Assembly (NCBI GenBank): GCA_963843575.1
Contig: CAWJKZ010000010.1
Location: 352,001 to 416,000 of the forward strand
DNA from: an uncultured Acidobacteriota bacterium
GTDB lineage: Bacteria > Acidobacteriota > UBA6911
Length of the DNA: 64,000 bases
Reading direction: 5' to 3'
A program made the translations under genes and the position numbers. The number at the start of each line of letters is the position of its first letter. Positions within the stretch are counted from its first letter, which is position 1. The notes beneath the pieces were generated by a model that worked only from the letters and a program-made list of their open reading frames with translations, did no database searches and had not been told where the DNA came from. This document shows, one piece after another, positions 13,389-62,479 of the stretch.

Positions 13389-13565
13389 ACGCGTGATTTC
13401 GGATTTCCTCGGGCGCGCTCCGTGCGCGCAAAAAATCACATTATCAGCAAAACCACGGTAAGTAAAACTGGGCATAATCCGATAATCTGCTACTGCGATT
13501 CAGACATGGGGATCCTGCAAACTTCCTGGAACGCGGATTCTCGCGGATTTACGTTGTAGCTCGGC

Positions 13566-31312: not shown

Positions 31313-31314
31313 CC

Positions 31315-45744: not shown

Positions 45745-45834
45745 GGAGGAATGGCCGAGTGGTTGAAGGCGGCGGTCTTGAAAACCGTTAGGGGGGTAAC
45801 CCCCTCGTGGGTTCGAATCCTACTTCCTCCGCCA
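45745..45834 (+). tRNA. tRNA-Ser(TGA)
   Basis: GGAGGAA acceptor stem, D loop TGGCCGAGTGGTTGAAGGC, anticodon loop CTTGAAA, long variable arm, GTTCGAATCC, 3' GCCA. Confidence 0.97.
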
Positions 45835-45880: not shown

Positions 45881-46141
45881 TCAAAAATGCTTGCGCTGCA
45901 ACTCCGTGCCCGGGTAAACGCGTACGCCCAAAGAAACTCCGGCGCTATCCGGTCCAGCCCGTCTGACGAGCTCCACCGTTTGCCCAATGCTCTCGCTCGT
46001 CTCGCCCGGTGAGCCCAGCAACAGGTCGAGCATGGCCACGATCCCTTGTTCCTTTGCCCAGTGTGTCGCATTAAGGATATCAGCCGGGCTCGGCGCAACA
46101 GGCGGCTGCATACGGTTTGTATTTATCAGTGCTGTCCGCAT
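45881..46141 (-). pseudogene. Internally deleted cobalamin-binding radical SAM gene remnant
   Basis: N-terminus ALINTNRMQPPVAP (TsrM-like start) joined directly to a late radical-SAM segment LLLGSPGET..GVRVYPGTEL; no CxxxCxxC. Confidence 0.7.
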
Positions 46142-46224
46142 AGGCGATTAGGCGGCCTGGGACGTCGGCCCGACGATGCTGTCCTCGGGGTCACGAGTTT
46201 GGCTCACCCTCGGCCTGGAACGTA

Positions 46225-46938
46225 TCACGAAGCTCCTGCCTCGACCGCGGCGACGCCAGTATCGTGCTGCACAACGCCGTCCTTCAACAGGATCCTGCGG
46301 CTTGCCATGTTCATGATGCTGGCGTCATGCGTGGAGAATATGAAAGTGACGCCGTTCTGTTGGTTAATGCGCTGCATGAGCTGAATGATCGCAGTTCCTG
46401 TTTCAGAATCCAGGTTCGCGGTCGGCTCGTCCGCCAGCACTATAAGAGGATCGGTAACCAGCGCGCGCGCAATCGCCACGCGCTGGCGCTGCCCGCCGCT
46501 CAGCTGATCCGGCTGGTGCTTCTGCTGCGGTTCCAGATCCACCGCGCACAGCATCTGCTTGACCCGGCGGGCCCGCTCCGCCGGCGGGCACCGTTTCAGT
46601 ATCAACGGGAACTCGACGTTCTCATAGACGTTGAGCACTGGGATGAGGTTGAAATTCTGGAAAATGAATCCGAGTGTATCCCTCCGGAGTGCGGTGGCCT
46701 TTTGATCGTCCAGATTGCTGACGGGCTGTCCGTGCACGTATACCTCCCCGGTGGTCGGCACGTCCAGGCAGCCTATCAGGTTGAGCATCGTGGTTTTTCC
46801 CGACCCAGAAGGCCCTACCACGGCAACAAACTCGCTCTTAGCGATGCGCAGATTGACATGTTTCAGGGCAGCAACGACAGTTTCACCGAGCTGGTAGGTC
46901 TTCCCCGCACCTACAAACTGCACCACCGGCTCCGTCAT
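46225..46938 (-). CDS. ABC transporter ATP-binding protein (LolD/MacB-like)
   Basis: GPSGSGKT, LSGGQRQRVAIARAL, LADEPTANLD, STHD. Confidence 0.95.
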   Translation of the reverse strand: MTEPVVQFVGAGKTYQLGETVVAALKHVNLRIAKSEFVAVVGPSGSGKTTMLNLIGCLDVPTTGEVYVHGQPVSNLDDQKATALRRDTLGFIFQNFNLIPVLNVYENVEFPLILKRCPPAERARRVKQMLCAVDLEPQQKHQPDQLSGGQRQRVAIARALVTDPLIVLADEPTANLDSETGTAIIQLMQRINQQNGVTFIFSTHDASIMNMASRRILLKDGVVQHDTGVAAVEAGAS

Positions 46939-46958
46939 AGCGATCTCCCTCGGGGGAT

Positions 46959-48119
46959 TCACATGTAGTATTTCAACCTTACGGTCACCGAGGACCGCAG
47001 TGGCAAAAGCCCGAATTCACCCCTCCCCCCACTGAAGTTCAGGAACAGGTCCGTACCGAATTCCAGGTGATCGCCGATCAGCCACGTAACAGCTGGCTGC
47101 AGGTATCCCGAACCGTCATCAAGGCAGACCAGGGACCGGGCGCCCCAGCTGAAGTCGTGCTTTTGCCGGTGGTAATATGCCGCGTATGCATAATTCCGGC
47201 GCAAAGTTCCCGGTCCGTATGCGCTCGCTAGCGCATCAGCCGGCTGAAGGGCCCCGGAATCCGAGTCGGACAATGCGCGCACCACATCGAACTCGGCTCC
47301 CGCCAACCCAGAGTCGTCGTGATAGTACTCGAGCGAAAACAGCCCCTTACCCAAAACCGACCTGTTGGCGCCCACGACGAACTTGCCGGTCAGGTCGTGC
47401 TGCCTCCTCTCGACGGTGGGGATTTCGCCCAAAACGGCTGGGTACGTCCGGGGGTTGTTCCAAACCAGTCCACCCTCTCCGTGCATGGTCCAGCCGCCTA
47501 GATTTCTTCTCACCGCTACTCCCAGGGTGCGCTCCCGCCGAGCGCTCCAAAAACCGTTGATATACGCTTCGGTACCGCCCCAGTACGAGTCCATCTGGAT
47601 GCCTGCGTAGGTGTCCCCCGAGTCCCGGACCGCCACAAACTTCGGCGCCACCCTCCCGAGCCGCCGCGAAACCACCAGCATGGGAACACCCGCCGCGAGG
47701 TAATCGGGACGCGACAGGTCGGTCTTGGGCTGTGCCGGGAACGTGGGGTTCCAATAATAAGAATACTGATCCGCATACCGCTCTACGCCGCCGGATACTC
47801 CCCACGTCCCCGGCAATTCCAGGCTCACGAACCCCTCGTCGAACCGGAGAGCATTGACGCGATCGCCGGCCAGGATTCCGTATGTCTGCAAGGTTCCACT
47901 CAGCCTGGCCGATCCGAGCGTTGCTGAACCCTTGCCCCGCAGTACCAGGAATGACTCCCAGCCGGGGACATCCTCATGGTTCGCGTTCTCTGTTGCATTG
48001 TTCAGCCTGCCGATCAGCTCGGCGCTGCCCGACAAGTCCTGGAATGCCCATGCGCCCATCCCCGCCCCCAGGGCCCAGACGCAACCGAGATTGATGAGGA
48101 AACGGCCCAGCTTGACCAT
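46959..48119 (-). CDS. Putative outer-membrane beta-barrel protein
   Basis: Signal peptide, amphipathic strands, FSLEYY, terminal VTVRLKYYM. Confidence 0.7.
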   Translation of the reverse strand: MVKLGRFLINLGCVWALGAGMGAWAFQDLSGSAELIGRLNNATENANHEDVPGWESFLVLRGKGSATLGSARLSGTLQTYGILAGDRVNALRFDEGFVSLELPGTWGVSGGVERYADQYSYYWNPTFPAQPKTDLSRPDYLAAGVPMLVVSRRLGRVAPKFVAVRDSGDTYAGIQMDSYWGGTEAYINGFWSARRERTLGVAVRRNLGGWTMHGEGGLVWNNPRTYPAVLGEIPTVERRQHDLTGKFVVGANRSVLGKGLFSLEYYHDDSGLAGAEFDVVRALSDSDSGALQPADALASAYGPGTLRRNYAYAAYYHRQKHDFSWGARSLVCLDDGSGYLQPAVTWLIGDHLEFGTDLFLNFSGGRGEFGLLPLRSSVTVRLKYYM

Positions 48120-48120
48120 G

Positions 48121-48882
48121 TTACTTCCTGATGCTCTCGACCGAGAAAATCCCTGGCGCCAGTTTCGCTTCTTTCATGCTTTCAATCGTGATCACGGTGA
48201 AGTCATTGTCCACCGACGCATCGCGCATCTCTATGCGGGATGCCCGCAAACGCCCCGCCAAATGCTTCCGCTCGCTGAACACGCATGTCTTCAGCAGCAT
48301 TCCAGAACGGGCGAAGTAGTCGAATTGCAGGGGGATGTAGGTCTCGCTTTCGACCATCATGCGGATCGAGTGATAGGTGACCCGCGGCGATTTCGCTGCG
48401 CAGCGCAGGACGTAGTGGCGCACGCCGTCATTCTCGACAGTTTTCTCGATTCCGACCTCGTAGTCGTCGCTGTATTCGGTGTCCATCAAGTCGTTGTTGG
48501 CGAAGGTGGAGTCCATGAAGGCCTCTTTGGACGACACTCGGATCGCGTTGGGCAGCCCCGGAATGGAGATCCAGACATTCCGGTCCTTGAAGAGGTAGTT
48601 CTTCCCGACCTCCGTGGGAGGCGACAGGAGGGCTACTATGCTGCCTATCCGTTTTGTCGCCTGCACGTGTATCCTGAAACTCCGTCCCCTCCCTTTCGGC
48701 GGATGGTCGACGAGTGTCATGTCCATCACGAGGGAACCGGGGAACATCGCTTCATCGAGTTCGCGGAGGACCTCCGGGCCTGTCATCGCAGTGCTGCGGG
48801 CCTGCCCGGAGCCGTCAGGCAGACTCGTAGCTATCCAAAGCAGGACGATGCCGACGGTGATGAGCATGCTTGCATGTTTCAT
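48121..48882 (-). CDS. Outer-membrane lipoprotein-sorting protein (LolA-like fold)
   Basis: FMDSTFANNDL, DYFARSGMLLKT, FSVESIR; signal or anchor at the N-terminus. Confidence 0.85.
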   Translation of the reverse strand: MKHASMLITVGIVLLWIATSLPDGSGQARSTAMTGPEVLRELDEAMFPGSLVMDMTLVDHPPKGRGRSFRIHVQATKRIGSIVALLSPPTEVGKNYLFKDRNVWISIPGLPNAIRVSSKEAFMDSTFANNDLMDTEYSDDYEVGIEKTVENDGVRHYVLRCAAKSPRVTYHSIRMMVESETYIPLQFDYFARSGMLLKTCVFSERKHLAGRLRASRIEMRDASVDNDFTVITIESMKEAKLAPGIFSVESIRK

Positions 48883-48886
48883 ACCA

Positions 48887-50119
48887 TCAGTCTCCGTGCA
48901 GGATTTCCACGATATTCACACCACGGGCGCGGATCGCGGCGCGCAATCCACCCAGCCACCCCGAAACCGCGCCCAGAACAAGGCAGCCCGCGTACTCGAT
49001 GGGCCGGCTGATCGTGTAAAAGCGGGGGCTGACCGGGATTGATGACAACTCCCCGACGTCCGTTGGGATGCCGTAGATGCCAAAGTACCAGCAAAACAGT
49101 GCACCCACGACGCAGCCCGCGACCGAGCCCAGCACGCCAATGAGGATTGACTCAGTCGAAACAAGCCCCAGGAGCATGTTTTTGGACATGCCGAGCGCGC
49201 GCATCGTGCCGAACTCGCGCATCCGCTCGAACACGGTCATGGACATGGAGTTGTTCATGATGAAGATCGAGATCAGCAGGAGGATTCCAAAAAAGAAGGC
49301 GAGGAAACGCGTGTCGATGAAAATGTCGGCCACCAGGGCGGTCTCGTAATGGCGCCAGTCGAAAAGCTCCAGTTGTTTCATGGCCGGCTCGCCGAGCTGG
49401 CGCTGCAAGTCGCGCAGCAGCGCTGCCGCATCATTCTCCCGGGCGGCCATGATGGCGATCTCCGTCGACTTGGAACCCATCTCCAGCAAGTCGCGGCCGA
49501 AAGCGATGGGGAGAAAAATGACGGTTTGGTCGAGCGAGTTGAACGGCGGCCGCACGATGCCGAGGACAGCGGCGTCCACGAGGTTCGGCACGTCGTAAAA
49601 CGTCCGCGCCTTCAAACGCACGGAATCACCGACCTTGGCGTGGAGGTCTCTCGCGAGGCGTTCCGTGATCAGGATCCCGGCGTCGTTCTCCTCCAGGTAT
49701 CGCCCCTGCTCGATGCACTCGGGAAGCAGGGAGACGGCCTTTTCCCTTTCCGGGGAGAAGGCCACTGCCGTCGTGTGCAGCACCTCTTCGCCTCTGGACA
49801 TGTAACAGAAGAAGCGGATCCGCTCGGATGCCATGCGCACCCGCGGATCGGAACGTACGATGCTTTCGACGCGGCCTGCCTCGGGAACGGCCAGCGTCAC
49901 CGGGAGCTTACGCGCGATCGTGTCATATCCCTTTGCATGGATCTGCAGGTGCGCAGTCCGATACCGTGTCGCTTTCGTCACTCCGTCCACGATCCGGAAC
50001 CGGTACACGCCGACGAAGAAAACGATCATGGACAGGCAGACAATAAAGGCGGCCATGTCCAGCAGTGTCCGTCTGGGATTCCGCAGCACATTACGGTACG
50101 CCAGCCACAGCAACTCCAT
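48887..50119 (-). CDS. ABC transporter permease (LolC/E-FtsX family)
   Basis: LAYRNVLRNPRRT, MTVFERMREFGTMRALGM. Confidence 0.92.
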   Translation of the reverse strand: MELLWLAYRNVLRNPRRTLLDMAAFIVCLSMIVFFVGVYRFRIVDGVTKATRYRTAHLQIHAKGYDTIARKLPVTLAVPEAGRVESIVRSDPRVRMASERIRFFCYMSRGEEVLHTTAVAFSPEREKAVSLLPECIEQGRYLEENDAGILITERLARDLHAKVGDSVRLKARTFYDVPNLVDAAVLGIVRPPFNSLDQTVIFLPIAFGRDLLEMGSKSTEIAIMAARENDAAALLRDLQRQLGEPAMKQLELFDWRHYETALVADIFIDTRFLAFFFGILLLISIFIMNNSMSMTVFERMREFGTMRALGMSKNMLLGLVSTESILIGVLGSVAGCVVGALFCWYFGIYGIPTDVGELSSIPVSPRFYTISRPIEYAGCLVLGAVSGWLGGLRAAIRARGVNIVEILHGD

Positions 50120-50133
50120 ACGACACCGTTCAA

Positions 50134-51351
50134 CTATTTGAAAGTGAGGGCTTTCAGCGGCTGCATCTTCCCTGCCAGATGCGCCGGGTAAAAGGCTCCC
50201 AGAAGCGACACCAGGATACCGACACAGAAACAGAAGACAGCGATCTGTCCCGAAAAGGTGGGGTAGATGATCCGGGCGATGCCATCGAGTTCCGGGCCCA
50301 TGTCGATCCCGCGAATCGCCACGATGCGGATTGCCACGGCACCGAGTGCCACACCCAGAAGCGACCCGATCAAGCCCACCAGTCCCGTCTCAGTCATTAC
50401 CATCGCCATCAGCGCCTTCCGCGACATGCCGATCGAGCGCATCGTCCCCAGGATACGAATCCGCTCGAACACCGAAATCAGGTGCGTGTTGACGATGCCG
50501 AAGGTGATCACAGCGACGATGATCGAAAACAGGATGACGATGACGGTGTTGACCCAGACAAGCCCCACGGCAACCTCCGCGTAAATGCTTTTCCACGGAT
50601 GCGCCCGGAGGCCTGCGCGGGAAAAAGAGGCGTTGAATGCAGCGACCATCGTGCCCGTCGACTCCGGGTCCTTCAGGCGGACCAGGATCGAACTGGACGC
50701 ACCCTGGACCTGGAGGAGAGTGCGGACCAATTCGATGCTCGCCAGGACGAGAAACTCGTTCTCGTCGGTCTTGTCCGTCTCGAAGATCCCTGCTACCGAG
50801 GCCTCTACTGCGTTGACGCCGCCGTTGCTGTTGTAAGCCATGAGGGTTAGCCGCGTTCCCGGATTGAGTTTGAGGTATGCCGCTGTAGGTTTGCCCAGCA
50901 GGATTTCGCCGGGCGCGTCCGGGAACCGGCCCAAGACCAGGGCCTGCCTGTACCGGGTGTTCCACCTCAGGTCGCGGGTGTCCACTCCACGGATCAGAGC
51001 ATCAGCTGATTGATCGGGACCCAGGATCATGCCGCCGCATACTAGCTCCTCCGTCGCTGCGTCCACCCATGGGTTTGCCCGTACGGACCGGAGCGCCGCC
51101 TGGGGATCCTCCACAAGCAGGCTGACGGGAAGAGTCGAGGCCTGCTCGAGATAGCCCTGCCGCTGGATGCAGATGTGTCCGATCGTGTCGAAGGCCAACG
51201 CCAGGAACATCTGCTTCATCCCGAGGAGAAAGCCCAAGGCAAAGGTCAAAACCGCGATGCTCAGGGCCACCGCGCTCAGCACGGCGACGGAGCGATGCCT
51301 GTCTTTGACGGCGTGACGAGCCGCCACCTTCAAAACCGTTCCGCCTCCCAT
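50134..51351 (-). CDS. ABC transporter permease (LolC/E-FtsX family)
   Basis: SVFERIRILGTMRSIGM, YPAHLAGKMQPLKAL. Confidence 0.92.
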   Translation of the reverse strand: MGGGTVLKVAARHAVKDRHRSVAVLSAVALSIAVLTFALGFLLGMKQMFLALAFDTIGHICIQRQGYLEQASTLPVSLLVEDPQAALRSVRANPWVDAATEELVCGGMILGPDQSADALIRGVDTRDLRWNTRYRQALVLGRFPDAPGEILLGKPTAAYLKLNPGTRLTLMAYNSNGGVNAVEASVAGIFETDKTDENEFLVLASIELVRTLLQVQGASSSILVRLKDPESTGTMVAAFNASFSRAGLRAHPWKSIYAEVAVGLVWVNTVIVILFSIIVAVITFGIVNTHLISVFERIRILGTMRSIGMSRKALMAMVMTETGLVGLIGSLLGVALGAVAIRIVAIRGIDMGPELDGIARIIYPTFSGQIAVFCFCVGILVSLLGAFYPAHLAGKMQPLKALTFK

Positions 51352-51355
51352 CGAC

Positions 51356-52069
51356 TCACCGCGCGCCTTTCGATGACGTCAACTTTCCTTCGAGTTCCGG
51401 CAGCAACCTGTTCGGTTTTCCATCCATCTCGTCGAAGAGATCGAATTCATAAAACGGGACCTTGATCCTGCGCCGGTTGAGCTGGCGGCTGAGGAATCCT
51501 ATGAAGATCCCGGGGCCCGGCCTGGATACCTTCCGCAGCACCTCGTTCTGCTCGTCCGCGGTAACCTTGTCGATTTCCACCTTGGAGCTCCACTCGAAGT
51601 ACTCGCGCAGATCCGGGTGAGAGGTCACCGCACATGTCGGCGAACCGCGGATCCCGACTATCCCGACGACGTTCATGCCTTCCCTCAGGTAGTCGGCAAT
51701 CTCCCTGGCGGTGTATCTGGCAACCCAGCGCATCCTCCAGTTCAGGACGAAGAGATACAGCGGCATCAAGAACGCGAACACGGCATGGACGATCTTGCAT
51801 CTGCCCATTCCGTGAAACTGGTACACGTGCTTTTTATAGATGCCGCCCCAGGCCACCCTCTCGGGGCAGATCATCTGGATGACACCGCAGTCCGTCCTCG
51901 CGACAAGAAGGCGGAGGATCTCGGGATTCACTCCCTTTGCGAATGCGCCGCCCATGTAACGCGTGTTAGCGTTGAGCAGACAGTGAGACAGGAAGAGCAC
52001 CCGGTTGCCGCGCCGGTCGCTCAGCCGCTCACGCAGGGTGCACATTGTTCTTGGAAACAGCGTTTTCAT
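51356..52069 (-). CDS. DUF523/2-thiouracil desulfidase (TudS)-related Fe-S protein
   Basis: SHCLLNANTRY, QMICPE, GSPTC, GPGIF: three conserved-looking Cys. Confidence 0.7.
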   Translation of the reverse strand: MKTLFPRTMCTLRERLSDRRGNRVLFLSHCLLNANTRYMGGAFAKGVNPEILRLLVARTDCGVIQMICPERVAWGGIYKKHVYQFHGMGRCKIVHAVFAFLMPLYLFVLNWRMRWVARYTAREIADYLREGMNVVGIVGIRGSPTCAVTSHPDLREYFEWSSKVEIDKVTADEQNEVLRKVSRPGPGIFIGFLSRQLNRRRIKVPFYEFDLFDEMDGKPNRLLPELEGKLTSSKGAR

Positions 52070-53288
52070 GACACTCCAGCGGGTTGCGCCAGCGGCATGC
52101 GACCGCGTAGTCCATGCAGCGCCGGAACATCTCGTAGTCGACTTCCGGGCAGCGCACGACGCTGTCGGCTTCCAGGATCGCGTCCGCCCGGGCAGTATCG
52201 AACTGCCGGCTATCGCTCATGTAGGGCAGGTAGACCCGACAGAAGTTCTCGTAACGCCGTTCCAGCGCGGTCTTGGGCGCGGCCGGGAACACCTCGGCCG
52301 TGCAGACACGGCTTCCTTTCAGACCGAGATAGTGCTGGCCCCAGGCGACCAGTGTCTCCAGGGTACAGGGATGCTTGTTGACAAGGTGGTACATGCCGGA
52401 ATCGGCCGCACGGGTCATGATGGCGCGAAAAGCCTCCACGACGAAGTCGATCGGGACAAGGTTGATGACCCCGCCGGTGTCAGTTCCCGTGTCGAACCGG
52501 ATAGGGACTTCAAGAGTCCCGTCGGGCTCCTGCCGGATACCGAGCCTCGAGGCAAGCCGCCCCTGGTTTTCGGCAAAATCCTTGCGGAATTCGTTCGCGA
52601 GGTACTCTGCCACCTTGACCGGGTAGTACATGGCGTTGAAAAGCAGCGTCCTGCCGCGTTTGGAGTCGCCGATGATGACGGAGGGCCGGTAAATGGACAG
52701 GCGGATGCCGGAACCTTCACAGGCGTCAATCAGAAGCTTTTCAGCTTTGTTCTTTGATGCTTCGTAGGCGTTGTGAAAACCTTCCGGTTCCCGCCATGAC
52801 TCGAGGCACAGGCCCACTACCTTCCCGACACAATATGCCGTGCTGAGGTAGTGAATGACCGAGCAACAGCCGGCCTGCGCCAGCTCGAGGACCCGTCGCG
52901 TCCCTCCAACGTTGATTTCGTACGTCGTCTCTTTGTCTTTCTCCTGGAAGCTGGTGTAAGACCCGCAGTGCACAATCTCGTCGACCTGGCGCGCGAGATC
53001 GAGGAAATCAGCCGGTGCGCATCCCAGTCTCTCCCTGCTCAGCTCGCCCTCAACGATCTGAAGCTCGGGACCGGACTCAATGCCGTGCCACTCAAGGACT
53101 CTCCGGACCCGCTCCCGGGCGCTGTGTTCCTTCCCCGCACGTGCCAGCACAACAACGCGGTACCCGTCGCGGAGTAACGACGCTGCGACATGGCTGCCCA
53201 CAAATCCGGTCGCGCCGGTCAGGAAAACCACAGCAGAGCGGTTCTGGCGCGCTCTCTGGATCTCCGAAACAGATGCCCTCATCACCAT
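52029..53288 (-). CDS. Extended SDR, thioester-reductase/fatty acyl reductase-like
   Basis: VFLTGATGFVGS, NVGGT, STAY, YEASK, YRPSVIIGDS, NLVPIDFV. Confidence 0.85.
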   Translation of the reverse strand: MVMRASVSEIQRARQNRSAVVFLTGATGFVGSHVAASLLRDGYRVVVLARAGKEHSARERVRRVLEWHGIESGPELQIVEGELSRERLGCAPADFLDLARQVDEIVHCGSYTSFQEKDKETTYEINVGGTRRVLELAQAGCCSVIHYLSTAYCVGKVVGLCLESWREPEGFHNAYEASKNKAEKLLIDACEGSGIRLSIYRPSVIIGDSKRGRTLLFNAMYYPVKVAEYLANEFRKDFAENQGRLASRLGIRQEPDGTLEVPIRFDTGTDTGGVINLVPIDFVVEAFRAIMTRAADSGMYHLVNKHPCTLETLVAWGQHYLGLKGSRVCTAEVFPAAPKTALERRYENFCRVYLPYMSDSRQFDTARADAILEADSVVRCPEVDYEMFRRCMDYAVACRWRNPLECHENAVSKNNVHPA

Positions 53289-53376
53289 ACAAGAAACCAG
53301 ATCTCTGATGGCGTCTGACAGCGCATCCGAGCGCTGTCAGAGCGGCATAGAACATCGGGCGGACGCCCCGGAGCAG

Positions 53377-55275
53377 TTATCCGCCCGCACAGAGCTCGCT
53401 GTCATTCCCTTCGTAGCAGCCAAAGAGATACGTCTCCGGGCGCGACATCCCCTGCATCAAGATCCACTCGCCCGAACAGACGAACCCGGGCCTCGCTGAA
53501 AGCTGGGCAACCAGTTCCGCCGATTCCTTCATCGCCTCGCGCATCGCCTCGACATGCGCCGGGTTCGTCTGGTCAAAGTAATAGTCGTACTCCATCAGCC
53601 CACGGGTCCCTTCCTCCAGCGGCACCAGGTAGCCGAACCCGTGTCTGAGGCCGTGTCGTTCGCCGACCTCGCCGAGCCTGTCGCATGCCTGGATGATCGA
53701 GCGCGGATCCTCGAGCGCATAGTAGAGCACCCGCGAGATAAACTGCTCTCCCCTCCCCATCCGGGCGGGCAGGATGCGAAAGCTGTTCAACCATAGCGGG
53801 TCCGACCGTTCGGGGTTGCGGCGCAAAGCAGTGAAGAAGTCCCGCATGTCCTCGTGCACATCCTCGTCCACTATGGAAGCGCTCGAGCGCAGGGATATCT
53901 CCAGCAGGGGCCGCATGTCGGGCGCAAAGATCTCACGGTAGTCACCCTGCGCCCCCTCCTCGCCCATGATCAGCTGGAACCCCGGCTCTCGGTGCAGCAT
54001 CGATAGGCCCCGGAGCATGAGCGAGGCAAGTTCTGCGTCGAGCACTGGGGACGCGAAGTTCCCGATCGAGGCGAGTGATCCGCGGTCCCCGAGCACCACC
54101 ACAAAGGCCTGAATGCCGAGACACCTTACGAGGGTGTCCGCGACCTGCGTTACGGTCTGGGAGCTCGAGGCGGCGAAGATGGAAAGATAAAGGCTGCCGA
54201 TCACCCCCAGGCCGACGCCGATCCTTCGCCGAGCGATGTTACGCGCCAGCGAAATGGCCTCTTCGATGCTGCCGCACGGCACGAGCGCGCTGCTCTCGTC
54301 CGGACCGATGGCGTGCAGCCGAAGCTGCAGCCCCGTGCAGATCCCGAGCGGTCTTACCTGCCGTCCTTTTCGGAAGAAGAACGGGTTCGGCGACCCATCT
54401 CCGCTTAAGCGGTAGATCTCGCCCGCAGGGCTGACGAATTCGGCGTCAATGTAATGGTTGGCTCCGATCCCATACCCGTAGGAGAAGAAAGAATGCATGT
54501 TCGTATGAATCACATTGGCGCACACCGATGCCGCGGGTTCGGCTACGTTGGCCCTCATTCCGTGATGCGACGCGGCCTTCTGCAGATCAAACGCCGAGAC
54601 GCCGGGCCCCACCCAGACACACCACCTTGCATCATCGATGCGGATTGCGTCCATGCGGCCGAGGTCGATTACGAGCCCGGGCGTCAGGGCGCCAGCAAGG
54701 CTCGTCGCCGCACCGCGGGCCAGGTACGGCAATCCACGGCGAGTGCACAGCTTCACGAGCTCCGCCACCTCGTGCGAGGACGACGGAAGGGCAACGTACT
54801 GGGGGCGGATTTCGTCGCAAAGCGGAGACCTCGCCCGCGCATAGCTCGCCGTGATTGCCGGATCCGAACTGCACCACTTCGGGCCGACAATAGCCGCGAT
54901 CTCGTCAATCACGGGATCCCGGATCGGTTCCACCGCGCTGTGCCGGACCGACGCGACATGAGACGCGAACGCGTCGAATATTCTGGATGTCCGGAGGCCG
55001 GCGACGAAATAGCACTGTTTGTCGCAGATACCGCACTTCCGGCACGACAGCGCGACCTCAACAAGCATCGGCGTCAACGGGACGAGCCCCCGTCGGTAGG
55101 CGCTGATCACCTGCATTCTTCCCTGTGGATAGAACGCCGCGAAACGTCGCTGCAATGCTACAGGACAGGTGCCGGTGTCCAGGAAATCGATACGGCACAT
55201 CCCGTAGCCGGAACAGCGGTCCGCTTCGGCGGTGTCCTCCAGGAATCGCGAACTTTTTTGGATTTCAGCATCCAT
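53377..55275 (-). CDS. FAD-linked oxidoreductase (VAO/PCMH-type FAD domain) with N-terminal 4Fe-4S domain
   Basis: CSGYGMC..CP and CRKCGICDKQC, then VALPSS..EV..RGAATSLAG..IDLGRM..VGPGV. Confidence 0.8.
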   Translation of the reverse strand: MDAEIQKSSRFLEDTAEADRCSGYGMCRIDFLDTGTCPVALQRRFAAFYPQGRMQVISAYRRGLVPLTPMLVEVALSCRKCGICDKQCYFVAGLRTSRIFDAFASHVASVRHSAVEPIRDPVIDEIAAIVGPKWCSSDPAITASYARARSPLCDEIRPQYVALPSSSHEVAELVKLCTRRGLPYLARGAATSLAGALTPGLVIDLGRMDAIRIDDARWCVWVGPGVSAFDLQKAASHHGMRANVAEPAASVCANVIHTNMHSFFSYGYGIGANHYIDAEFVSPAGEIYRLSGDGSPNPFFFRKGRQVRPLGICTGLQLRLHAIGPDESSALVPCGSIEEAISLARNIARRRIGVGLGVIGSLYLSIFAASSSQTVTQVADTLVRCLGIQAFVVVLGDRGSLASIGNFASPVLDAELASLMLRGLSMLHREPGFQLIMGEEGAQGDYREIFAPDMRPLLEISLRSSASIVDEDVHEDMRDFFTALRRNPERSDPLWLNSFRILPARMGRGEQFISRVLYYALEDPRSIIQACDRLGEVGERHGLRHGFGYLVPLEEGTRGLMEYDYYFDQTNPAHVEAMREAMKESAELVAQLSARPGFVCSGEWILMQGMSRPETYLFGCYEGNDSELCAGG

Positions 55276-55291
55276 CGACGATCTCCGCACC

Positions 55292-55654
55292 TCACCGGGG
55301 CCCTTGCCGCTGTTTCGATAATTCCTGCACGGACGCCGACAGAACGGAAGCAAATCGCAGGATATCTACGATATTCCCGGAGGTATGGATCAGGCCGCTC
55401 AACTTACCCGCAAGAGGCGTGATCTGACGGCGGGCGAGAAGATCCAACGTTTCCTCGCTCAGCCGGAACGAGATGTCAGGCGGGAGGGCACACGAATCGC
55501 ACACGACAGCATTCCCGTCAGCCACCTGCACGGAGAAAACGGACTCGCCGACGGTCAGGCCGACGTTCCTGTTCCACCCTCGAAGCATGCGCCCGACCTG
55601 CGCACTTGCCTTGCCTGCGTCGATAATGGCCTGAATCTGCTCCAGTGCGCCCAT
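55292..55654 (-). CDS. SCP2 sterol/lipid-binding domain protein
   Basis: 120 aa; VADG..PDISFRLSEETL..ITPLAGKLSGLIHTSGN resembles the SCP2 C-terminus. Confidence 0.7.
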   Translation of the reverse strand: MGALEQIQAIIDAGKASAQVGRMLRGWNRNVGLTVGESVFSVQVADGNAVVCDSCALPPDISFRLSEETLDLLARRQITPLAGKLSGLIHTSGNIVDILRFASVLSASVQELSKQRQGPR

Positions 55655-55681
55655 GAACTCTCCCTTGGCCGCGGGTTTTAT

Positions 55682-57140
55682 TCAATGGCTCGAGAGCCTT
55701 TCTGGGGGAAGGTAACGAGACAGATCCGTCTGTTCCATCCAGGCAGTCTCCGACCGGATCAGGCGGTGGGCATGTCCTTGCTTCCTGGTTGCGTCGATGC
55801 CCATCTTCACGGAGAAATCCCCGACCCGGGCGGCGTCGGTCAATTCGCCCGTGGCCTCGAGAACCATCACATCTCGGAGCGCAACAACCCTCGTGTCGGT
55901 CGCCCACTGCACATCGAACGGGTCGTAGACGTCGATGTCGTCGTCCACCACCACCACCCTTTTTAACCTGGCGGAGAAGGCAAACAACGCCCGCAGGATG
56001 TCGTAAGGCTCGCTCGCACTCTGCTTGTAGATAGACACGGCCAGCCCGGTCCCGGGCACCCCGGGGCAGCATGAATAGATCCTTGATGTTGGGAGATATC
56101 GATCCCAGGAACGCGCGTGTTTTCGCGAGCTCCGTCATCCCAAGGGGCATGATGAGCGACATCATTTCGAAAGAGGTGCAGACCAGGCTGTGGAACATAG
56201 GGTCCTCCCGAGTCCGCACAGCCTTGATTTCGACCGGGAAGCTTTCGGTGGCTTGGCTGGCCACGAGGTCGTACTCGGTAAACGGGCCTTCCCGTACCCG
56301 CTCCTCGGGGTGGAGCACTCCCTCGAGCAGGTACTCGGCGTCTGCAGGCACGGGGAGGTCAACGGTCTCAGCCTGCGCGAGCCTGAACGGCGATTGCGTG
56401 AGCCCGCCGGCGACGCAATACTCGCTCTGGCCGAACGGTACGCTCATGGTGGCGGCCCACAGCATCTCGGGTGCGACACCTACCGCGATGGCAATGGGCA
56501 GGGATCTGCCTTTCCGGGCCGCACGGTGAATTATGGCTAGCAGGTCGCGTTTGGCGTTCACCATCATCACCATCCGCTGCCGGTCCAAGACCTGAATGCG
56601 GTAGATCCCGGCGTTTACATAGTTGTTTTCGGGATCGCGGGCCACGGTCACAGCCGCGGTTAGGTAAGGTCCCGCATCCTCCCGGAAGTACCATGGGGCC
56701 GGGACCTGGCGCGTCAGGTCCACGTCGCAACCCATATGCGAGACGGGCCACGCGCCCTCGCAATGGACGGGATCGACAGGGTGAGCCAGGGCGTGCAGGA
56801 CGGATTTTTCCACGTCCCGGTATATCGACAGGTACATTTCGTTGGAAGACCACAGCGGATAGACGATACCAGGCTTGCGCAGCCCGGAGTAAAAGCTCAG
56901 GAATTCCGGCTGCAGGGGAACCGTTGGGAGTATCCCCGTCCGGAGCGGGGTCAGGAAAATGTTCCCCACGATGCGCCCGGGATACCCGCGCAGCCTTTCG
57001 AAAAGGACGCTCTGCAGGTGTTTCTTCTCGATCTGCCACTGGAGGGCCGCGAGTTCATGACGGGTATCGACGCACGTGTCTACCCGCACCAGATGGCCGA
57101 AATCGTCCAGTTCCTGAATGTACTCTCTCAGTTCCGGCAC
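55682..57140 (-). CDS. UbiD family (prFMN-dependent) decarboxylase, one frameshift near 56062
   Basis: LREYI, EDAGPYLT, NAGIYRIQV, VPADAEYLLEG, EGPFTEY, VVVVDDDIDVYD..VQWA..TR, KMGIDAT. Confidence 0.9.
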
Positions 57141-57160
57141 CGGGCCCCCGATTGATCGCC

Positions 57161-57424
57161 CTACGCTTCAGCCGAGCGCTGCTGGTTGATCCTCCCGAAC
57201 ACGTAGTCGGCGATGTCCTTGACTGTCCTGGCAGCCTTCTCGAGGTCCTGCGGGATCTCGATATCGAAGTTCTCTTCGATTTGCCACACGATTTCGACAG
57301 CCGACAGTGAGGTGGCGTCCAGGTCCTCACGAAGCCGCGAGTCCGGTTTGATCTCGGCGGGGTCAGTCTCAAGGTTCTCCGCGATGATCTCGATGATTTT
57401 GCGTTGAACGTCATCGTATGTCAT
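57161..57424 (-). CDS. Acyl carrier protein (atypical ATSL motif)
   Basis: Acidic 87 aa protein; LREDLDATSLSAVEIV..IEENFDIEIP..TVKD; ATGA-coupled to fabF. Confidence 0.9.
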   Translation of the reverse strand: MTYDDVQRKIIEIIAENLETDPAEIKPDSRLREDLDATSLSAVEIVWQIEENFDIEIPQDLEKAARTVKDIADYVFGRINQQRSAEA

Positions 57425-58671
57425 GACACCTCCACTCTCTTCAACACGAGGCAAGCGTTACAGCTGCCGAACCCGAAGGAATTTGAAAGGGCCGCCCCCA
57501 CCGGTGTGCGCCGCGCCGCATTCGGCACATAATCGAGATCGCAATCCGGGTCTCTGCATTCGTAGTTGATTGTGGGGGGGATGATTCCCCGGTCCAGAAC
57601 CAGCGCGGTGACAAGCGCCTCGATGGCTCCCGCGGCCCCGATCGTGTGCCCGATCATCGACTTAGTGGACGAAATCGGCACCTGGTACGCCCGGTCGCCG
57701 AAGACCTCCTTGATCGCCAGCGTTTCTGCCGCGTCGTTCAGAGTCGTTGAGGTCCCGTGCGCGTTGATGTAACCGACGTCCTCCAGCACAAGCCCGGCAT
57801 CGCGGATGGCTCCGCGGATGACGCGTGCCGCATCCTTGCCGTCGGGCTGCGGCATGACGATGTGATAGGCGCCACAGCCCGCCGAGTATCCGGCGACTTC
57901 AGCGTAAATTCGGCGATTCCTACGGACGGCCCGTTCCAGTTCCTCGAGGACTAGCATGGCCCCGCCCTCAGACATCACGAAGCCATCGCGATCCTTGTCG
58001 AACGGGCGGGAAGCCTCTTGGGGCGTGTCGTTCCGTTTCTTCGACAGCGCGCCCAACGCCGCATAGGACCCATAGGTGAATCGCGTCAGGGGAGCCTCGA
58101 CGCCACCGCAGAGGCACACATCGATTTCCCCGGTGCGGATTTTTCCCAACGCCTCGCCTATAGCGATGGCGCCGGAAGTGCACGCGGCGGAGATGACGAG
58201 ATTGGGCCCCCACAGACCAAACTGGATTGCGATGTGGCCGGCAACGGCGTTGGGTGATACTCTGGGCACCGAGAGGGGGTTGATCCTATGCACTCCCTTG
58301 TCGTAGGCGGCCATCATCTGTTCCTCGTGGAAGGCGATGCCTCCCAGTCCGGAACCGACGACTACTCCGATCCTGGCGGAATCCTCCCGGTTCAGATCCA
58401 GCCCGCTGTCCTCGAGCGCCATCCGTGCCGCGGCGACCCCGTAGTGGACGAAACGGTCCGTTCTTTTTGCAGTGGCGGACGGCATGTACACGGACGGGTT
58501 GAAATCCTTGATTTCACCTGCAATCCGGGATTCGAAATCGGAGGAGTCGAATCGGGTAATTTGGCCAATACCGGACCGGCCTTCGACATTCGCCTGCCAG
58601 AAGGCCTCGAGACCAACTCCATTTGGTGCAACTACTCCCACGCCAGTGACCACTGCACGGTTCGTAGCCAT
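57421..58671 (-). CDS. fabF: Beta-ketoacyl-ACP synthase II
   Basis: AVVTGVG, SAACTSG, SRPFDKDRDGFV, NAHGTST, KSMIGH, SNSFGFG: intact Cys-His-His triad. Confidence 0.93.
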   Translation of the reverse strand: MATNRAVVTGVGVVAPNGVGLEAFWQANVEGRSGIGQITRFDSSDFESRIAGEIKDFNPSVYMPSATAKRTDRFVHYGVAAARMALEDSGLDLNREDSARIGVVVGSGLGGIAFHEEQMMAAYDKGVHRINPLSVPRVSPNAVAGHIAIQFGLWGPNLVISAACTSGAIAIGEALGKIRTGEIDVCLCGGVEAPLTRFTYGSYAALGALSKKRNDTPQEASRPFDKDRDGFVMSEGGAMLVLEELERAVRRNRRIYAEVAGYSAGCGAYHIVMPQPDGKDAARVIRGAIRDAGLVLEDVGYINAHGTSTTLNDAAETLAIKEVFGDRAYQVPISSTKSMIGHTIGAAGAIEALVTALVLDRGIIPPTINYECRDPDCDLDYVPNAARRTPVGAALSNSFGFGSCNACLVLKRVEVS

Positions 58672-58698
58672 TTGCACCGTTCGAAGTCGTTAGAAGAT

Positions 58699-58715: not shown

Positions 58716-59585
58716 GGTGCGGGACGAGAGGCAACTATAAAAGGACTCGGAGCGCTCATCACTTCACCGAGTTCATCGAGGACAGAGGAACACAACTCGG
58801 TGGCACCAGTGTAATCTGTAGCATCGGAATCGGTGTCGCTTAGGACCTTCGCGGTCTCGGCGGTCTTTCCGGTTCAGCCTTGAAATGAAACCGGGAGGAC
58901 GACGAAGACCGCGAAAGCTCCCTGAACCGCAAATGTCAGCTTGAGCCGTCGAGGCCCTGCGTTACGCGCTGGGGCACAGGGCAGCAAACCCCACTGCGCA
59001 CCTGGCCCTGGCGCTCACCATGTCGAGCAAAAGGATCGCCGGCGATCTCGACCGCATCGTCGAGGCCGCCGCGCAGTCCATCGATCGGCGGCTGACATAC
59101 GAACAGGCGCTGCGCGATCACTTCGCGCGGCTTCGCGTACACTCCCAGGGATTCATGTTCTCGCTCGACGGCATCCAAGCGGAGTACCGGCAAAAATGAG
59201 ACATCACCCTGTGGGGCCGCCGTGTGCCTAAGGGAGAACCACATGCGATACGAGGAGTTTCGCAATCAGCTCCAGGATGCTCTCGTTCAGGTGCGTCTGC
59301 TTGACCGGCGCCCCTGGGACATTTTCCCATCCCCTATCGTCCGGGATTTCATGCATCAAAACCCAGACGTGTGCATGTTATTTCATGACGCTGCCCAAGC
59401 TGGAGGCCGAAGATCCGGAATCCTTGAGCCTGATGCTCTCAATCCCGGGGGAGAATTTTCTTAGCAGCAGCATAGTTCCATGATTTACTGGTTTACTGGA
59501 GAGTTGGGTGTTGAAATCTCCAACTTCTCCAGCTACATTCCGTGCCACATCCGATGCTCAACCGCATCTTGGAAAGGGGACGCCA

Positions 59586-61082
59586 TTGAGTACAAAACTG
59601 AGCCGCAGAAGGTTTATTGGTGCATCCGGAGCTGGTATAGCCGGAGCCGGTCTGGCTAGTTCCAACATTCTGGCCGGGCGCGCTGAGATTGGAGAACAAT
59701 CGCCTCCAGATCGCATAAGACAGGAGTCTGGCAAACAGCACACACAGAAATTCAACATGTCTGGTTATCGTGCTCCCAAGATCGACCTGGTGCGTGTCGG
59801 CTTTATCGGCCTTGGAAGCCGGGGACCAGGTCATGCCAGAAACATGAGCCTTCTGGAGGGGGTTGGAGTCAAGGCGTTATGCGACATCGTTCCGGAGGAG
59901 GCAGAAAAAGCAAGGAAAGGGATTGAATTTGCAGGTTTTAATCCGACCCTGTACACGGGCGATTCCGAGGCGTGGAAGAAGCTATGCGACCGGGATGATA
60001 TCGACCTTGTCTACATCTGTACTCCCTGGAACTTACATGCGCAGATGGCGGTTTATGCAATGGAACACGGCAAGCATGTTGCCATTGAAGTTCCTGCAGC
60101 CGATACCCTCGAAGAGTGCTGGCAGCTTGTCGAAACATCCGAGAAGACCAGGAAGCATTGCATGATGATGGAAAACTGCTGCTACGACTTCTTCGAGCTC
60201 CTGACTCTGAATATGGCGCGGCAGGGGTTCTTTGGCGATATCGTGCACGGGGAAGGCGCCTATATACACACTCTGTTAGAGGGTAATTTTAGCAGGAATG
60301 GATATTGGAATATGTGGCGCCTCAGAGAAAATGCAGACAGGCGCGGCAATTTATATCCGACACACGGCCTGGGTCCAATATGCCAAATAATGGACATTAA
60401 CAGGGGCGACAAGATGGATTACCTCGTATCCGTCATGGGCAGCGATTTCTTGATGAACGAGACGGCCAAGAAACTGTCAGCGACAGACAATTTCTTCAAG
60501 GAATTCGTTAATCGGCCATATAGAGGCAATATGACCACGACTTCGATCCGTACCAGCAAAGGACGGACGATACTGCTGCAGCATGACGTAACATCACCAA
60601 ATGTTTATTCCAGGATCCACAAGGTCAGCGGCACCAAAGCTTCGGCGCTGAAATATCCTCTTCCCCCTAAGATCGCCATCGGTCATCGTGAATGGGTTTC
60701 GGATGAGGAGTTCAAGTCGCTTGAAGAAAAGTACGCCCCTCCCATTGTGAAGAGAGTAGGTGAAATGGCCAAGCAGGTTGGCGGTCATGGCGGCATGGAC
60801 TTTCTTGAAGACTGGCGCCTGATTGATTGCCTTCGCAATGGATTGCCTCTCGACCAGGACGTCTATGATGCGGCGCTTTGGACCGCTATCGCACCATTAA
60901 GTGAATGGTCGGTTGCTAACCGCTCAAATTCGATTGACGTGCCTGATTTCACAGGCGGATCATGGAAAACCAACAAACCGGTGGACGTATTCTTGGAAGA
61001 GGGCGGGAATACAAAGGTGATCAGAGCGGCGCCACCCAGAGCGCGCAGAGTACAACCCGCGGTCGAAGGAGTAGAAAACTAA
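59586..61082 (+). CDS. Tat-exported GH109 alpha-N-acetylgalactosaminidase-like (Gfo/Idh/MocA fold)
   Basis: SRRRFIG, GLGSRG, EVPAA, MENCCY, GAYIH, YPTHGLGP, GGHGGMD, PDFTGG. Confidence 0.9.
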   Translation: MSTKLSRRRFIGASGAGIAGAGLASSNILAGRAEIGEQSPPDRIRQESGKQHTQKFNMSGYRAPKIDLVRVGFIGLGSRGPGHARNMSLLEGVGVKALCDIVPEEAEKARKGIEFAGFNPTLYTGDSEAWKKLCDRDDIDLVYICTPWNLHAQMAVYAMEHGKHVAIEVPAADTLEECWQLVETSEKTRKHCMMMENCCYDFFELLTLNMARQGFFGDIVHGEGAYIHTLLEGNFSRNGYWNMWRLRENADRRGNLYPTHGLGPICQIMDINRGDKMDYLVSVMGSDFLMNETAKKLSATDNFFKEFVNRPYRGNMTTTSIRTSKGRTILLQHDVTSPNVYSRIHKVSGTKASALKYPLPPKIAIGHREWVSDEEFKSLEEKYAPPIVKRVGEMAKQVGGHGGMDFLEDWRLIDCLRNGLPLDQDVYDAALWTAIAPLSEWSVANRSNSIDVPDFTGGSWKTNKPVDVFLEEGGNTKVIRAAPPRARRVQPAVEGVEN

Positions 61083-62467: not shown

Positions 62468-62479
62468 GACGGCAGCCTT

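Follow-up and report, generated by a model that had tools for sequence, protein, structure and literature searches.

The heterocyst glycolipid system of cyanobacteria combines the hgl polyketide synthase (PKS) genes with a thioester-reductase release step and the DevBCA exporter. Here we analyze a row of genes on the minus strand of a 64,000-nucleotide stretch (the window) from an uncultured Acidobacteriota bacterium of the UBA6911 lineage (contig CAWJKZ010000010.1, positions 352,001 to 416,000), which by analogy appears to work most like lipid pathways ending in a dedicated MacB-type exporter, that is, like the heterocyst glycolipid/DevBCA system and, more loosely, like the aryl-polyene (APE) systems. 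From its first gene to its last, the row encodes a FabF-type β-ketoacyl-ACP synthase, an acyl carrier protein (ACP), a UbiD-family decarboxylase, a small SCP2-like protein, a 4Fe-4S/FAD_binding_4 iron-sulfur flavoprotein (FeSFAD), a stand-alone SDR of the thioester-reductase (R-domain) type, a DUF523/TudS-related protein, two ABC permeases, a LolA-like protein, a predicted outer-membrane β-barrel, an ABC ATPase and a fragment of a B12 radical-SAM protein. The conserved core of this cluster consists of the UbiD, SCP2-like, FeSFAD and SDR genes together with the five exporter genes, and not of FabF-ACP or the DUF523-like gene. The most valuable result is that the FeSFAD-SDR pair is a broad, uncharacterized module that is repeatedly coupled to envelope exporters, a point absent from the preliminary description of this DNA.

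Comparison with described lipid pathways

With the heterocyst glycolipid system the row would share a carrier-bound fatty chain released by a reductase of the NAD_binding_4 type and an ABC exporter of the MacB/FtsX type leading to an outer layer. The ATPase of the window scores 211 bits on the DevA model, and Aminicenantes-like loci have a DevB-like HlyD adaptor. In contrast, the window contains no modular PKS, glycosyltransferase or HlyD adaptor, its scores stay below the cut-offs of the DevA model (211 vs. 295.8 bits) and the DevC model (18.6 vs. 290 bits), and it features instead UbiD, SCP2, the Fe-S flavoprotein, a LolA-like carrier and a barrel of its own.

APE and flexirubin-type clusters resemble the row in combining a type II ketosynthase (KS) and an ACP with a LolA-like protein, and in the delivery to the outer membrane. 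The row, however, has one FabF-type KS, and neither a pair of KS and chain-length factor nor a ketoreductase or dehydratase was found in its 13 proteins with Pfam and NCBIfam. It also lacks the ammonia lyase, thioesterase and acyltransferase, and its exporter is an FtsX/MacB ABC system, whereas that of APE belongs to the RND/MMPL type. To our knowledge, UbiD, FeSFAD and SDRs of the R type are not components of APE systems.

Other described pathways are more distant. The OleA thiolase, OleB hydrolase and OleC AMP-ligase-like domains of the OleABCD pathway are missing from the row, and the SDR matches the OleD models with E-values of 6e-6 to 2e-8, far below their cut-offs of 580. The Pfa polyunsaturated fatty acid synthases and modular PKSs are built from multidomain KS-AT-ACP-KR-DH proteins that the window does not encode; every gene of the row codes for a single-function protein of at most 658 residues (ORF listing and Pfam). 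The combination of a fatty acyl reductase (FAR) and AGPS in ether-lipid synthesis (eukaryotes, and Agps of Myxococcus), or ElbD, comes closer in one respect, as an NAD_binding_4 reductase stands beside a FAD_binding_4 enzyme of the vanillyl-alcohol oxidase (VAO) family; ElbD also carries a reductase domain of the NAD_binding_4 type (10.64898/2026.06.23.733905). FeSFAD differs from this system by an additional N-terminal Fe-S domain and by the lack of a FAD-oxidase_C signature (Pfam), and the cluster has no acyltransferase for the dihydroxyacetone phosphate step. AGPS itself matches FeSFAD by sequence in the FAD domain only (E about 6e-15) and is absent among the 50 best structural matches obtained with VIA. 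Finally, the ladderane-type clusters of Rattray 2009 (PMC2649909) represent a gene set different from that of the window.

The preliminary description had not recognized the combination in aryl polyene, OleABCD, Pfa, dialkylresorcinol or Elb clusters, and this view holds: full-text literature searches yielded no description of this gene cluster, the defining features of the APE, Ole and Pfa systems are lacking, and those of the Elb/AGPS systems probably are as well.

The gene row and its conserved core

An alignment of 24 FeSFAD relatives was used to scan one genome per prokaryote species, which yielded 302 related stretches; 80 loci were kept, and all proteins of the window were compared with them by tblastn. 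The whole core was found in only one of the 80 loci, L001, which belongs to an Acidobacteriota metagenome-assembled genome (MAG). Nine genes, from UbiD to the LolD-like ATPase, are arranged there in the same order and on the same strand, with identities ranging from 39 to 75% (UbiD 63% in the N-terminal and 75% in the C-terminal part, SCP2-like protein 41%, FeSFAD 56%, SDR 46%, permease 1 55%, permease 2 53%, LolA-like protein 53%, barrel 39% and ATPase 65%). Because these nine genes recur with order and strand kept, the arrangement is not a product of chance. A metagenome scan with the UbiD clade returned four loci, and the order UbiD-SCP2-FeSFAD is kept on the short metagenome contigs L105 and L108. 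Moreover, two relatives of the barrel sit on contigs sized 15604 and 11740, the FeSFAD relative P0002 and the UbiD-SCP2 fusion P0123 come from a contig size of 15604, and the fusion P0124 from one of 11741; these nearly equal sizes suggest shared contigs and perhaps two more copies of the cluster. The synteny outside this genome, whose absence the preliminary description would have taken as a sign of a chance mosaic, therefore exists in L001, L105 and L108, with the exception of the part formed by FabF-ACP and DUF523.

By tblastn, the L001 locus lacks FabF, ACP and the DUF523-like gene, and the one FabF-type gene of that genome (E ≤ 1e-40) lies on a different contig. UbiD is preceded in L001 by a 272-residue protein with a weak asparagine-synthetase-like match (E 0.098) and no match in the genome of the window. 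The DUF523-like protein gave no tblastn match in any of the 80 loci, and by sequence comparison its gene is specific to the version of the cluster in this genome. The genome of the window has two more FabF genes, which show 50% and 43% identity and follow an ACP gene in both cases, so the FabF-ACP pair of the cluster is an extra copy. The front end of the cluster is thus variable, as FabF-ACP and DUF523 are missing from L001, and because FabF-ACP is not conserved, the building of the chain is the weakest step of the earlier interpretation. Of the proposal that the row builds, tailors and exports an unusual lipid, the dedicated cluster with tailoring enzymes and a Lol-like exporter is retained, and the building step is not.

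The row was defined by ORF listing, a tRNA search and Pfam and NCBIfam scans. In agreement with the preliminary description, all genes lie on the minus strand with overlaps or short gaps (intergenic spacing of -41 to +88 nt by ORF coordinates) and end beside a tRNA-Ser gene; of its twelve apparently complete genes and one remnant, the row as such is confirmed, while UbiD is in two frames here. The first gene, FabF (57421-58677), encodes a β-ketoacyl-ACP synthase II with N- and C-terminal ketoacyl-synt domains (TIGR03150, 545 bits, cut-off 493.75) and with the Cys/His/His motifs, as read by eye in the translation. Its stop codon is overlapped by the ATG of the ACP gene (about 57161-57424; PP-binding 1.5e-13; NF002148 71.9 bits vs. 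a cut-off of 71), which ends 20 nt before the start of UbiD. The largest gap, 88 nt, separates FeSFAD from the SDR gene. The DUF523-like gene (51356-52069) is followed after 4 nt by permease 1; its product is at best a distant relative of the DUF523/TudS desulfidases, because it scores under the family cut-offs (NF045597 77.7 vs. 130 bits, Pfam 2-thiour_desulf 19.8 vs. 34.7). The spacings of 20 nt between ACP and UbiD and of 4 nt between the DUF523-like gene and the permease suggest co-transcription. A scan for promoters and terminators gave counts equal to those in shuffled sequence. In a sediment metatranscriptome, near-identical short contigs lie within FeSFAD (196 nt, one mismatch) and FabF (297 nt, no mismatch), a weak indication, as carry-over of DNA is possible. 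As previously stated, the row contains no FabG/FabZ, chain-length factor, UbiX or phosphopantetheinyl transferase (PPTase) in the Pfam scan; a UbiX-like gene (151 bits) is located elsewhere in the genome, on another contig.

A tRNA-Ser(tga) gene (45745-45834, plus strand; found with ARAGORN) lies 46 nt beyond the last gene of the row. It is convergent with the cluster and a neighbor whose position does not imply membership; the ATPase gene and the tRNA are only about 390 nt apart. The GC content of the cluster is slightly lower than that of the upstream region (0.60-0.62 vs. 0.62-0.70), and its third-position GC content is lower as well. A genomic island was considered and is unsupported: the tRNA is not repeated directly at the opposite end of the cluster, none of the flanking genes encodes an integrase, and the difference in GC is small. 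On the other side of the row, a divergent GH109/GFO_IDH_MocA-type oxidoreductase gene with a twin-arginine-like N-terminus (59508-61082, plus strand) has an unusually low third-position GC of 0.56, compared to 0.72-0.87 in its neighbors. Two adjoining genes at 61334-63577 (minus strand) both code for a KdpD N-terminal sensor domain, in one case together with a Usp domain, and no histidine-kinase part is present in the ORFs scanned.

The UbiD gene (55682-57140) is distributed over two frames. The N-terminal part and the core (UbiD_N and UbiD, the latter 7.2e-55) are read in the frame of ORF 55518-57140, with the start at 57140, and past about residue 355 this ORF turns into arginine-rich nonsense. 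UbiD_C is encoded in another frame by the separate ORF 55682-56059 (Pfam UbiD_C 5.5e-15), and the switch sits at a run of C and G at about 56060-56070. Twenty UbiD relatives continue in frame across this site (alignment A2), and the L001 orthologue is intact with 484 residues. Two further genes of the window are likewise split: a nuoH-like gene (6239-7324, plus strand) lies in three frames that cover positions 2-148, 149-247 and 247-297 of the NADHdh profile, and a gene with AMP-binding, phosphopantetheine-binding and acyltransferase domains (10475-13475, minus strand) lies in two (11910-13475 and 10475-12493). The break in UbiD therefore reads as an assembly indel rather than as a mark of a pseudogene, and the frameshift is probably an assembly error. 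Public contigs from two sequencing runs are near-perfect matches to portions of the stretch; none of them spans 56060-56070, and the two runs contain just 7-9% of the sampled words. The L001 MAG probably also carries indel errors, since its SDR orthologue (11863-13043) is split into two frames at about 12624. The split AMP-binding/ACP/acyltransferase gene has itself an Aas/ElbD-like, lipid-related architecture and is located 33 kb from the cluster.

The assignment of the protein to the UbiD family of decarboxylases, which is of the prenylated flavin mononucleotide (prFMN) type, rests on the three Pfam domains and on the EGPFxE motif; the stretch EGPFTEYD is invariant in the 20 relatives and is also present in the translation of the window. 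Its nearest solved structures are HmfF (PDB-code: 6h6v, 286 bits) and E. coli UbiD (193 bits), and Fdc1 was also matched. The clade is tight, with about 24 protein clusters of 48-94% identity, and full-length members score more than 530 bits before the scores drop to 218 bits. The neighboring SCP2-like gene (55292-55654) encodes a putative lipid-binding protein that stays below the Pfam SCP2 cut-off (18.8 vs. 21.3 bits, E 0.0022). SCP2/nsLTP structures rank first for a profile of its four orthologues, with weak E-values of 0.015-0.06. In P0123 and P0124 (607 and 620 residues) UbiD and the SCP2-like protein are fused, and the C-terminal 110 residues of these fusions are 45-47% identical to the SCP2-like protein of the window.

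The exporter part is formed by permease 1 (50134-51351), permease 2 (48887-50119), the LolA-like protein (48121-48882), the barrel (46959-48119) and the ATPase (46225-46962). Both permeases carry FtsX and MacB_PCD domains above the cut-offs and the ATPase is a separate protein (ABC_tran 1.1e-32, 114 bits), which defines a MacB/FtsX-type ABC exporter. LolCDE-LolA likewise comprises two permeases of the FtsX/MacB_PCD type, one ATPase and a periplasmic protein with the LolA fold. In contrast to that system, the proteins of the window score below all equivalog cut-offs (LolD model TIGR02211 228.5 vs. 307.75 bits; lolCE 78.9 and, for permease 1, 102.6 vs. 362.45 bits). Because every cut-off of the Lol, Dev and MacB equivalogs is missed, the exporter is related to these systems and not a member of them. 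Moreover, since these genes are embedded among enzymes and come with a barrel of their own, a lipoprotein is an improbable cargo. The LolA-like gene, a predicted periplasmic carrier, is the sole strong PF17131 match in the genome (1.4e-33).

No Pfam, NCBIfam or PDB sequence match was obtained for the 386-residue product of the barrel gene. Its AlphaFold model (pLDDT 68) shows a signal-like helix and about 19 strands, and the best Foldseek matches are OccK/OpdK, AlgE and porins with E-values of about 1e-9 to 1e-10. Only four homologue clusters were found among 5.8 billion proteins searched, one of them being the L001 protein. The model predicts an outer-membrane β-barrel that would be specific to this type of cluster.

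The FeSFAD-SDR pair

FeSFAD (53377-55275) consists of an N-terminal Cys-rich, ferredoxin-like domain, an FAD domain of the type found in VAO and p-cresol methylhydroxylase (PCMH), and a cap domain. The N-terminal domain comprises about 110 residues, is only weakly matched by Fer4_8 and contains six Cys residues that are invariant in 24 sequences, including a CxxCxxCxxxC motif. Such a domain implies that the protein contains its own electron relay and that the electrons therefore go to an acceptor different from oxygen. The model of the protein (pLDDT 89) has the two-domain VAO/PCMH fold. In VIA-align the best Z-scores were obtained for mammalian D-lactate dehydrogenase (20.5), 4-ethylphenol oxidase (20.2) and p-cresol methylhydroxylase (19.5), with eugenol and vanillyl-alcohol oxidases at about 18-20, and Foldseek concurs. 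The structural overlap extends over residues 117 to 629 approximately, with 380-413 residues aligned at an r.m.s.d. of 3.3-4.0 and an identity of about 12-19%. The FAD_binding_4 match (6.6e-24, 84.6 bits) and a Z-score of about 20 over roughly 400 residues place the protein in the VAO/PCMH superfamily. It shares with these flavoenzymes the same two-domain fold (Z 19.5-20.5) and differs from them by a low identity of 13-19%, a cap that is unmatched by sequence and the added six-Cys ferredoxin-like domain. The cap alone gave no meaningful match among PDB sequences, and a comparison with the protein atlas returned generic clusters of FAD-binding oxidoreductases only. A FeSFAD profile run against all representatives found 122 proteins with E ≤ 1e-30, about 25 of them full length, and no informative fusion among the 122.

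The SDR (52029-53288) matches NAD_binding_4 (9.4e-43, 146.6 bits) and, in its translation read by eye, contains the glycine-rich nucleotide-binding motif TGATGFVGS and the YxxxK motif as YEASK, which together identify a thioester-reductase SDR of the R-domain type. Its nearest solved structures are MxaA, a PKS R domain and the R domain of a carboxylic acid reductase (CAR). As it scores 136 bits on TIGR01746, where the cut-off is 213, it is not a typical member of that model.

Among 69 loci with at least 1300 nt of room, 55 have the SDR gene within 600 nt downstream of FeSFAD on the same strand. Nine of the 14 exceptions have instead a class I methyltransferase gene directly upstream, an arrangement that was found in 13 of 73 loci with room. 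The FeSFAD-adjacent methyltransferases of L078 and L065 exceed the cut-off of the UbiG model (144 and 141.5 vs. 102.95 bits), a low cut-off that generic class I methyltransferases may also pass. According to the record labels, the pair occurs in Acidobacteriota/Aminicenantes, Bacteroidota, Chloroflexota, Spirochaetota, Nitrospirota, Thermotogae, Planctomycetota, Firmicutes, Verrucomicrobiota and ANME-1 archaea, as well as in carriers of the Desulfobacterota type (Geobacterales, Syntrophaceae and Desulfococcaceae), and Thermoplasmatota are represented among the FeSFAD relatives. It thus spans a dozen or more phylum-level labels, archaea included. Its cultured carriers include Geotalea sp. SG265, Geomesophilobacter sediminis, Marinilabilia rubra and Geofilum rubicundum. 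The source habitats of the 302 stretches are mostly anoxic sediments, digesters and soils. Within the phylum of the window FeSFAD is sporadic, being present in 9 of 400 other genomes sampled and in none of six genomes of the same family.

Among 14 diverse annotated loci the pair usually stands alone amid unrelated genes. It adjoins MacB-type exporters in three lineages, represented by the window and L001, by L078 and L114, and by L115 and L116. In L078 and L114 the exporter set comprises a BamB-like and a LolA_like protein, two FtsX permeases, an ATPase and a 389-residue protein. The latter has a signal peptide, an alternating sequence and an aromatic residue at its C-terminus, features that would suit a barrel, and its alignment with the barrel of the window reached a probability of 0.9% in a profile comparison, so homology is not shown. 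In L115 (700-10763) and L116, which belong to the same phylum, the genes are ordered HlyD-FtsX-FtsX-ATPase-FeSFAD-SDR-polysaccharide-deacetylase-like, with the pair near the tail. A methanogen-type FilR1 regulator domain is encoded on the contig of a further locus, L106 (1-8248), which groups a UbiD gene, a ferredoxin, an aldehyde:ferredoxin oxidoreductase, a UbiA-family prenyltransferase, a 306-residue protein without assignment, two FtsX permeases and an ABC ATPase. Its UbiD is 45% identical to the UbiD clade of the window, and by its gene content L106 looks like a second, distinct set of enzymes that goes with this UbiD clade and this kind of exporter. In a Methanophagales (ANME-1) MAG (L035, 842-11728), a GFO/IDH/MocA oxidoreductase and a cupin are encoded between SDR and FeSFAD, and beyond the pair lie genes for BioY, a biotin carrier, a biotin carboxylase, a B12 radical-SAM/biotin-ligase fusion and a carboxyltransferase.

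Five Bacteroidia loci have the order FeSFAD-SDR-B12 radical SAM-methyltransferase. The best model for the radical-SAM protein of L078 is TIGR04072, the "lipid biosynthesis B12-binding/radical SAM protein" (285.6 bits, below the cut-off of 360). These loci bear on the last gene of our row (45881-46141), which encodes an 86-residue fragment. An internal piece of about 65 residues matches positions 300 to 420 approximately of several B12 radical-SAM models weakly (TIGR04072 18.4 bits, under the same cut-off of 360). The best matches among the loci are the genes right after FeSFAD-SDR in the Bacteroidia loci L077-L079 (31-34% identity), which makes the fragment a relic of a regular cluster member and not a stray piece.

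Possible functions and alternative explanations

We hypothesize, with an even chance of being right, that the cluster forms an operon dedicated to tailoring a hydrophobic carboxylate or thioester and to passing the product to the cell envelope. From the genes and their order, the conservation of nine of them and the folds of two proteins, all of which are directly established, we infer the following mechanism, given here in one possible order of steps. The stand-alone SDR of the R-domain type would reduce a hydrophobic chain held as a thioester, yielding an aldehyde or alcohol. Here the thioester may be carried by the ACP of the cluster and extended by the extra FabF, and in other genomes a different front end would take this role. 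FeSFAD would catalyze an oxygen-independent dehydrogenation or hydroxylation, with the electrons leaving via the N-terminal Fe-S domain. In the Acidobacteriota version, UbiD would remove or add a carboxyl group at a conjugated position of an unsaturated or aromatic intermediate, using prFMN supplied by the UbiX-like gene product from elsewhere in the genome, and the SCP2-like partner might hold the greasy substrate during this step. The MacB/LolCDE-like transporter, with its two permeases and one ATPase, would then take the product out of the inner membrane, the LolA-like protein would carry it across the periplasm, and the cluster-specific barrel would receive it in the outer membrane. The tight spacing, the synteny of nine genes with L001, the UbiD-SCP2 fusions, the rare barrel and the adjacency of FeSFAD and SDR support this reading, as do the linkage to MacB-type exporters in three lineages, the R-domain-like SDR, the full VAO/PCMH fold with its Cys motifs and the UbiX-like gene.

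Several observations weigh against it. No ligase or PPTase that could load the R-domain enzyme was found in the Pfam scan of the row. In the 14 annotated loci the pair is mostly alone, with no exporter, so export is not obligatory for it. The structural matches of FeSFAD fail to separate D-2-hydroxyacid dehydrogenases from 4-alkylphenol oxidases, and the SCP2 assignment is weak (18.8 vs. 21.3 bits in Pfam, E 0.015 at best with the orthologue profile). FabF-ACP and DUF523 are lacking in the other copy of the cluster, and chain building may therefore be unrelated to the core. Lastly, with UbiD out of frame as assembled and only a stump of the radical-SAM gene left, this copy could be decaying.

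Alternatively, the cluster could produce a prenylated phenol or a quinone-like lipid. UbiD would then decarboxylate an SCP2-held intermediate of the prenyl-hydroxybenzoate type, the flavoprotein would oxidize a para-substituted phenol without oxygen, and in relatives a UbiG-like methyltransferase would cap the hydroxyl groups. Ubiquinone biosynthesis, with UbiD/UbiX and the SCP2 proteins UbiJ/UbiT, indeed combines a UbiD-family enzyme with an SCP2-type lipid holder, which is in line with the fusions P0123 and P0124. Relatives of the window add a UbiG-like methyltransferase (above the cut-off in L078 and L065, and directly upstream of FeSFAD in the 13 loci mentioned) or, in L106, a UbiA-family prenyltransferase together with the ferredoxin, the aldehyde:ferredoxin oxidoreductase and a similar exporter, and 4-ethylphenol, eugenol and vanillyl-alcohol oxidases and p-cresol methylhydroxylase are among the tied top fold matches of FeSFAD. 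The row of the window, on the other hand, contains no UbiA, no UbiG, UbiE or other methyltransferase and no hydroxylases, and its UbiD stays far under the pathway models (109 vs. 788 bits for the UbiD equivalog and 145.6 vs. 495.9 bits for the menaquinone model). The R-type SDR and the Fe-S flavoprotein have no counterpart in ubiquinone biosynthesis, known quinone routes give an R-domain reductase and FabF-ACP no role, D-lactate dehydrogenases fit the flavoprotein equally well, and the UbiG cut-off is one that generic methyltransferases may pass. We regard a prenylated phenol or quinone-like product as doubtful.

An oxygen-independent tailoring of a carotenoid or another isoprenoid polyene appears improbable. 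In such a route the flavoprotein and the SDR would oxidize a terminal methyl group to the aldehyde or acid level, the conjugated acid would lose its carboxyl group through UbiD, and the pigment would be exported to the outer membrane. Carotenoid-type genes adjoin the pair in three of the 14 annotated loci: two Amino_oxidase (phytoene-desaturase-like) genes, SQS_PSY and SRPBCC in L012 (5408-10048), a CrtO acyltransferase, GT2, adh_short and Amino_oxidase in L068 (5548-9883), and Amino_oxidase and Aldedh in L075 (13529-17888). Conjugated unsaturated acids are the substrates of Fdc1-type UbiD enzymes, and Fdc1 is among the PDB matches. The cultured carriers Marinilabilia rubra and Geofilum rubicundum have species names that mean red, which is a lead only. 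As queries in tblastn, however, the carotenoid-type genes matched no locus beyond their three sources among about 95 loci, the row of the window contains none of them (an Amino_oxidase gene at 30565-32742 lies 13 kb away, unlinked), and R-domain SDRs normally reduce thioesters rather than oxidize alcohols.

We also give little credence to a role in the catabolism or detoxification of aromatic, phenolic or hydrophobic acids, for a unit composed of a UbiD-type carboxylase/decarboxylase, a PCMH-like hydroxylase, an aldehyde-forming reductase and an ABC efflux pump. UbiD and PCMH-type enzymes serve in anaerobic aromatic degradation, the nearest solved UbiD, HmfF, is a catabolic furandicarboxylate decarboxylase, UbiD is coupled with an aldehyde:ferredoxin oxidoreductase in L106, and the pair often stands alone in unrelated neighborhoods. 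Against this, FabF, ACP, the SCP2-like and LolA-like proteins and the dedicated barrel suit biosynthesis and outward transport better, scans of the row and its flanks revealed no CoA ligase, ring reductase or β-oxidation genes nearby, and the radical-SAM partner of the relatives is nearest to a model for lipid biosynthesis.

A decaying or mosaic island, in which the core no longer has its radical-SAM gene, and perhaps no UbiD either, and in which FabF-ACP and DUF523 are chance neighbors, would explain the stump, the frameshift, the unconserved front end, the sporadic occurrence of FeSFAD in the phylum and the slightly lower GC and third-position GC, yet it is hardly probable given that two further genes of the window, one of them nuoH, are split as well, a pattern more indicative of indels in the assembly than of decay, that the remaining genes are all full length, that the 20-nt and 4-nt spacings suggest co-transcription, and that neither an integrase nor an att-like repeat is present.

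Could the pair have a wider role than the Acidobacteriota cluster alone would indicate? As a more speculative extension of the tailoring operon, which we think unlikely to hold in full, FeSFAD and SDR would constitute an unrecognized oxygen-independent lipid-tailoring module of anaerobes from at least a dozen phyla, among them the archaea ANME-1 and Thermoplasmatota. The Acidobacteriota version would have two additions, a UbiD-SCP2 unit for the decarboxylation of a lipid-bound unsaturated acid and a private exporter across the envelope, and the product might be an "orphan" sedimentary lipid, of which the makers and genes are not known, such as a non-isoprenoid alkyl or alkenyl chain, an ether, or a long-chain compound with methoxy or methyl groups.

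If the reading as a tailoring and export operon is true, Acidobacteriota would possess an unfamiliar envelope lipid, and the two-enzyme module, found in 302 stretches, could help organic geochemists to link biomarker lipids to their producers. It would also mean a new task for the UbiD/prFMN family and for VAO-type flavoproteins with an Fe-S wire of their own, and the cluster-specific barrel with its LolA-like carrier would provide a compact model for the periplasmic transit of non-protein hydrophobic cargo.

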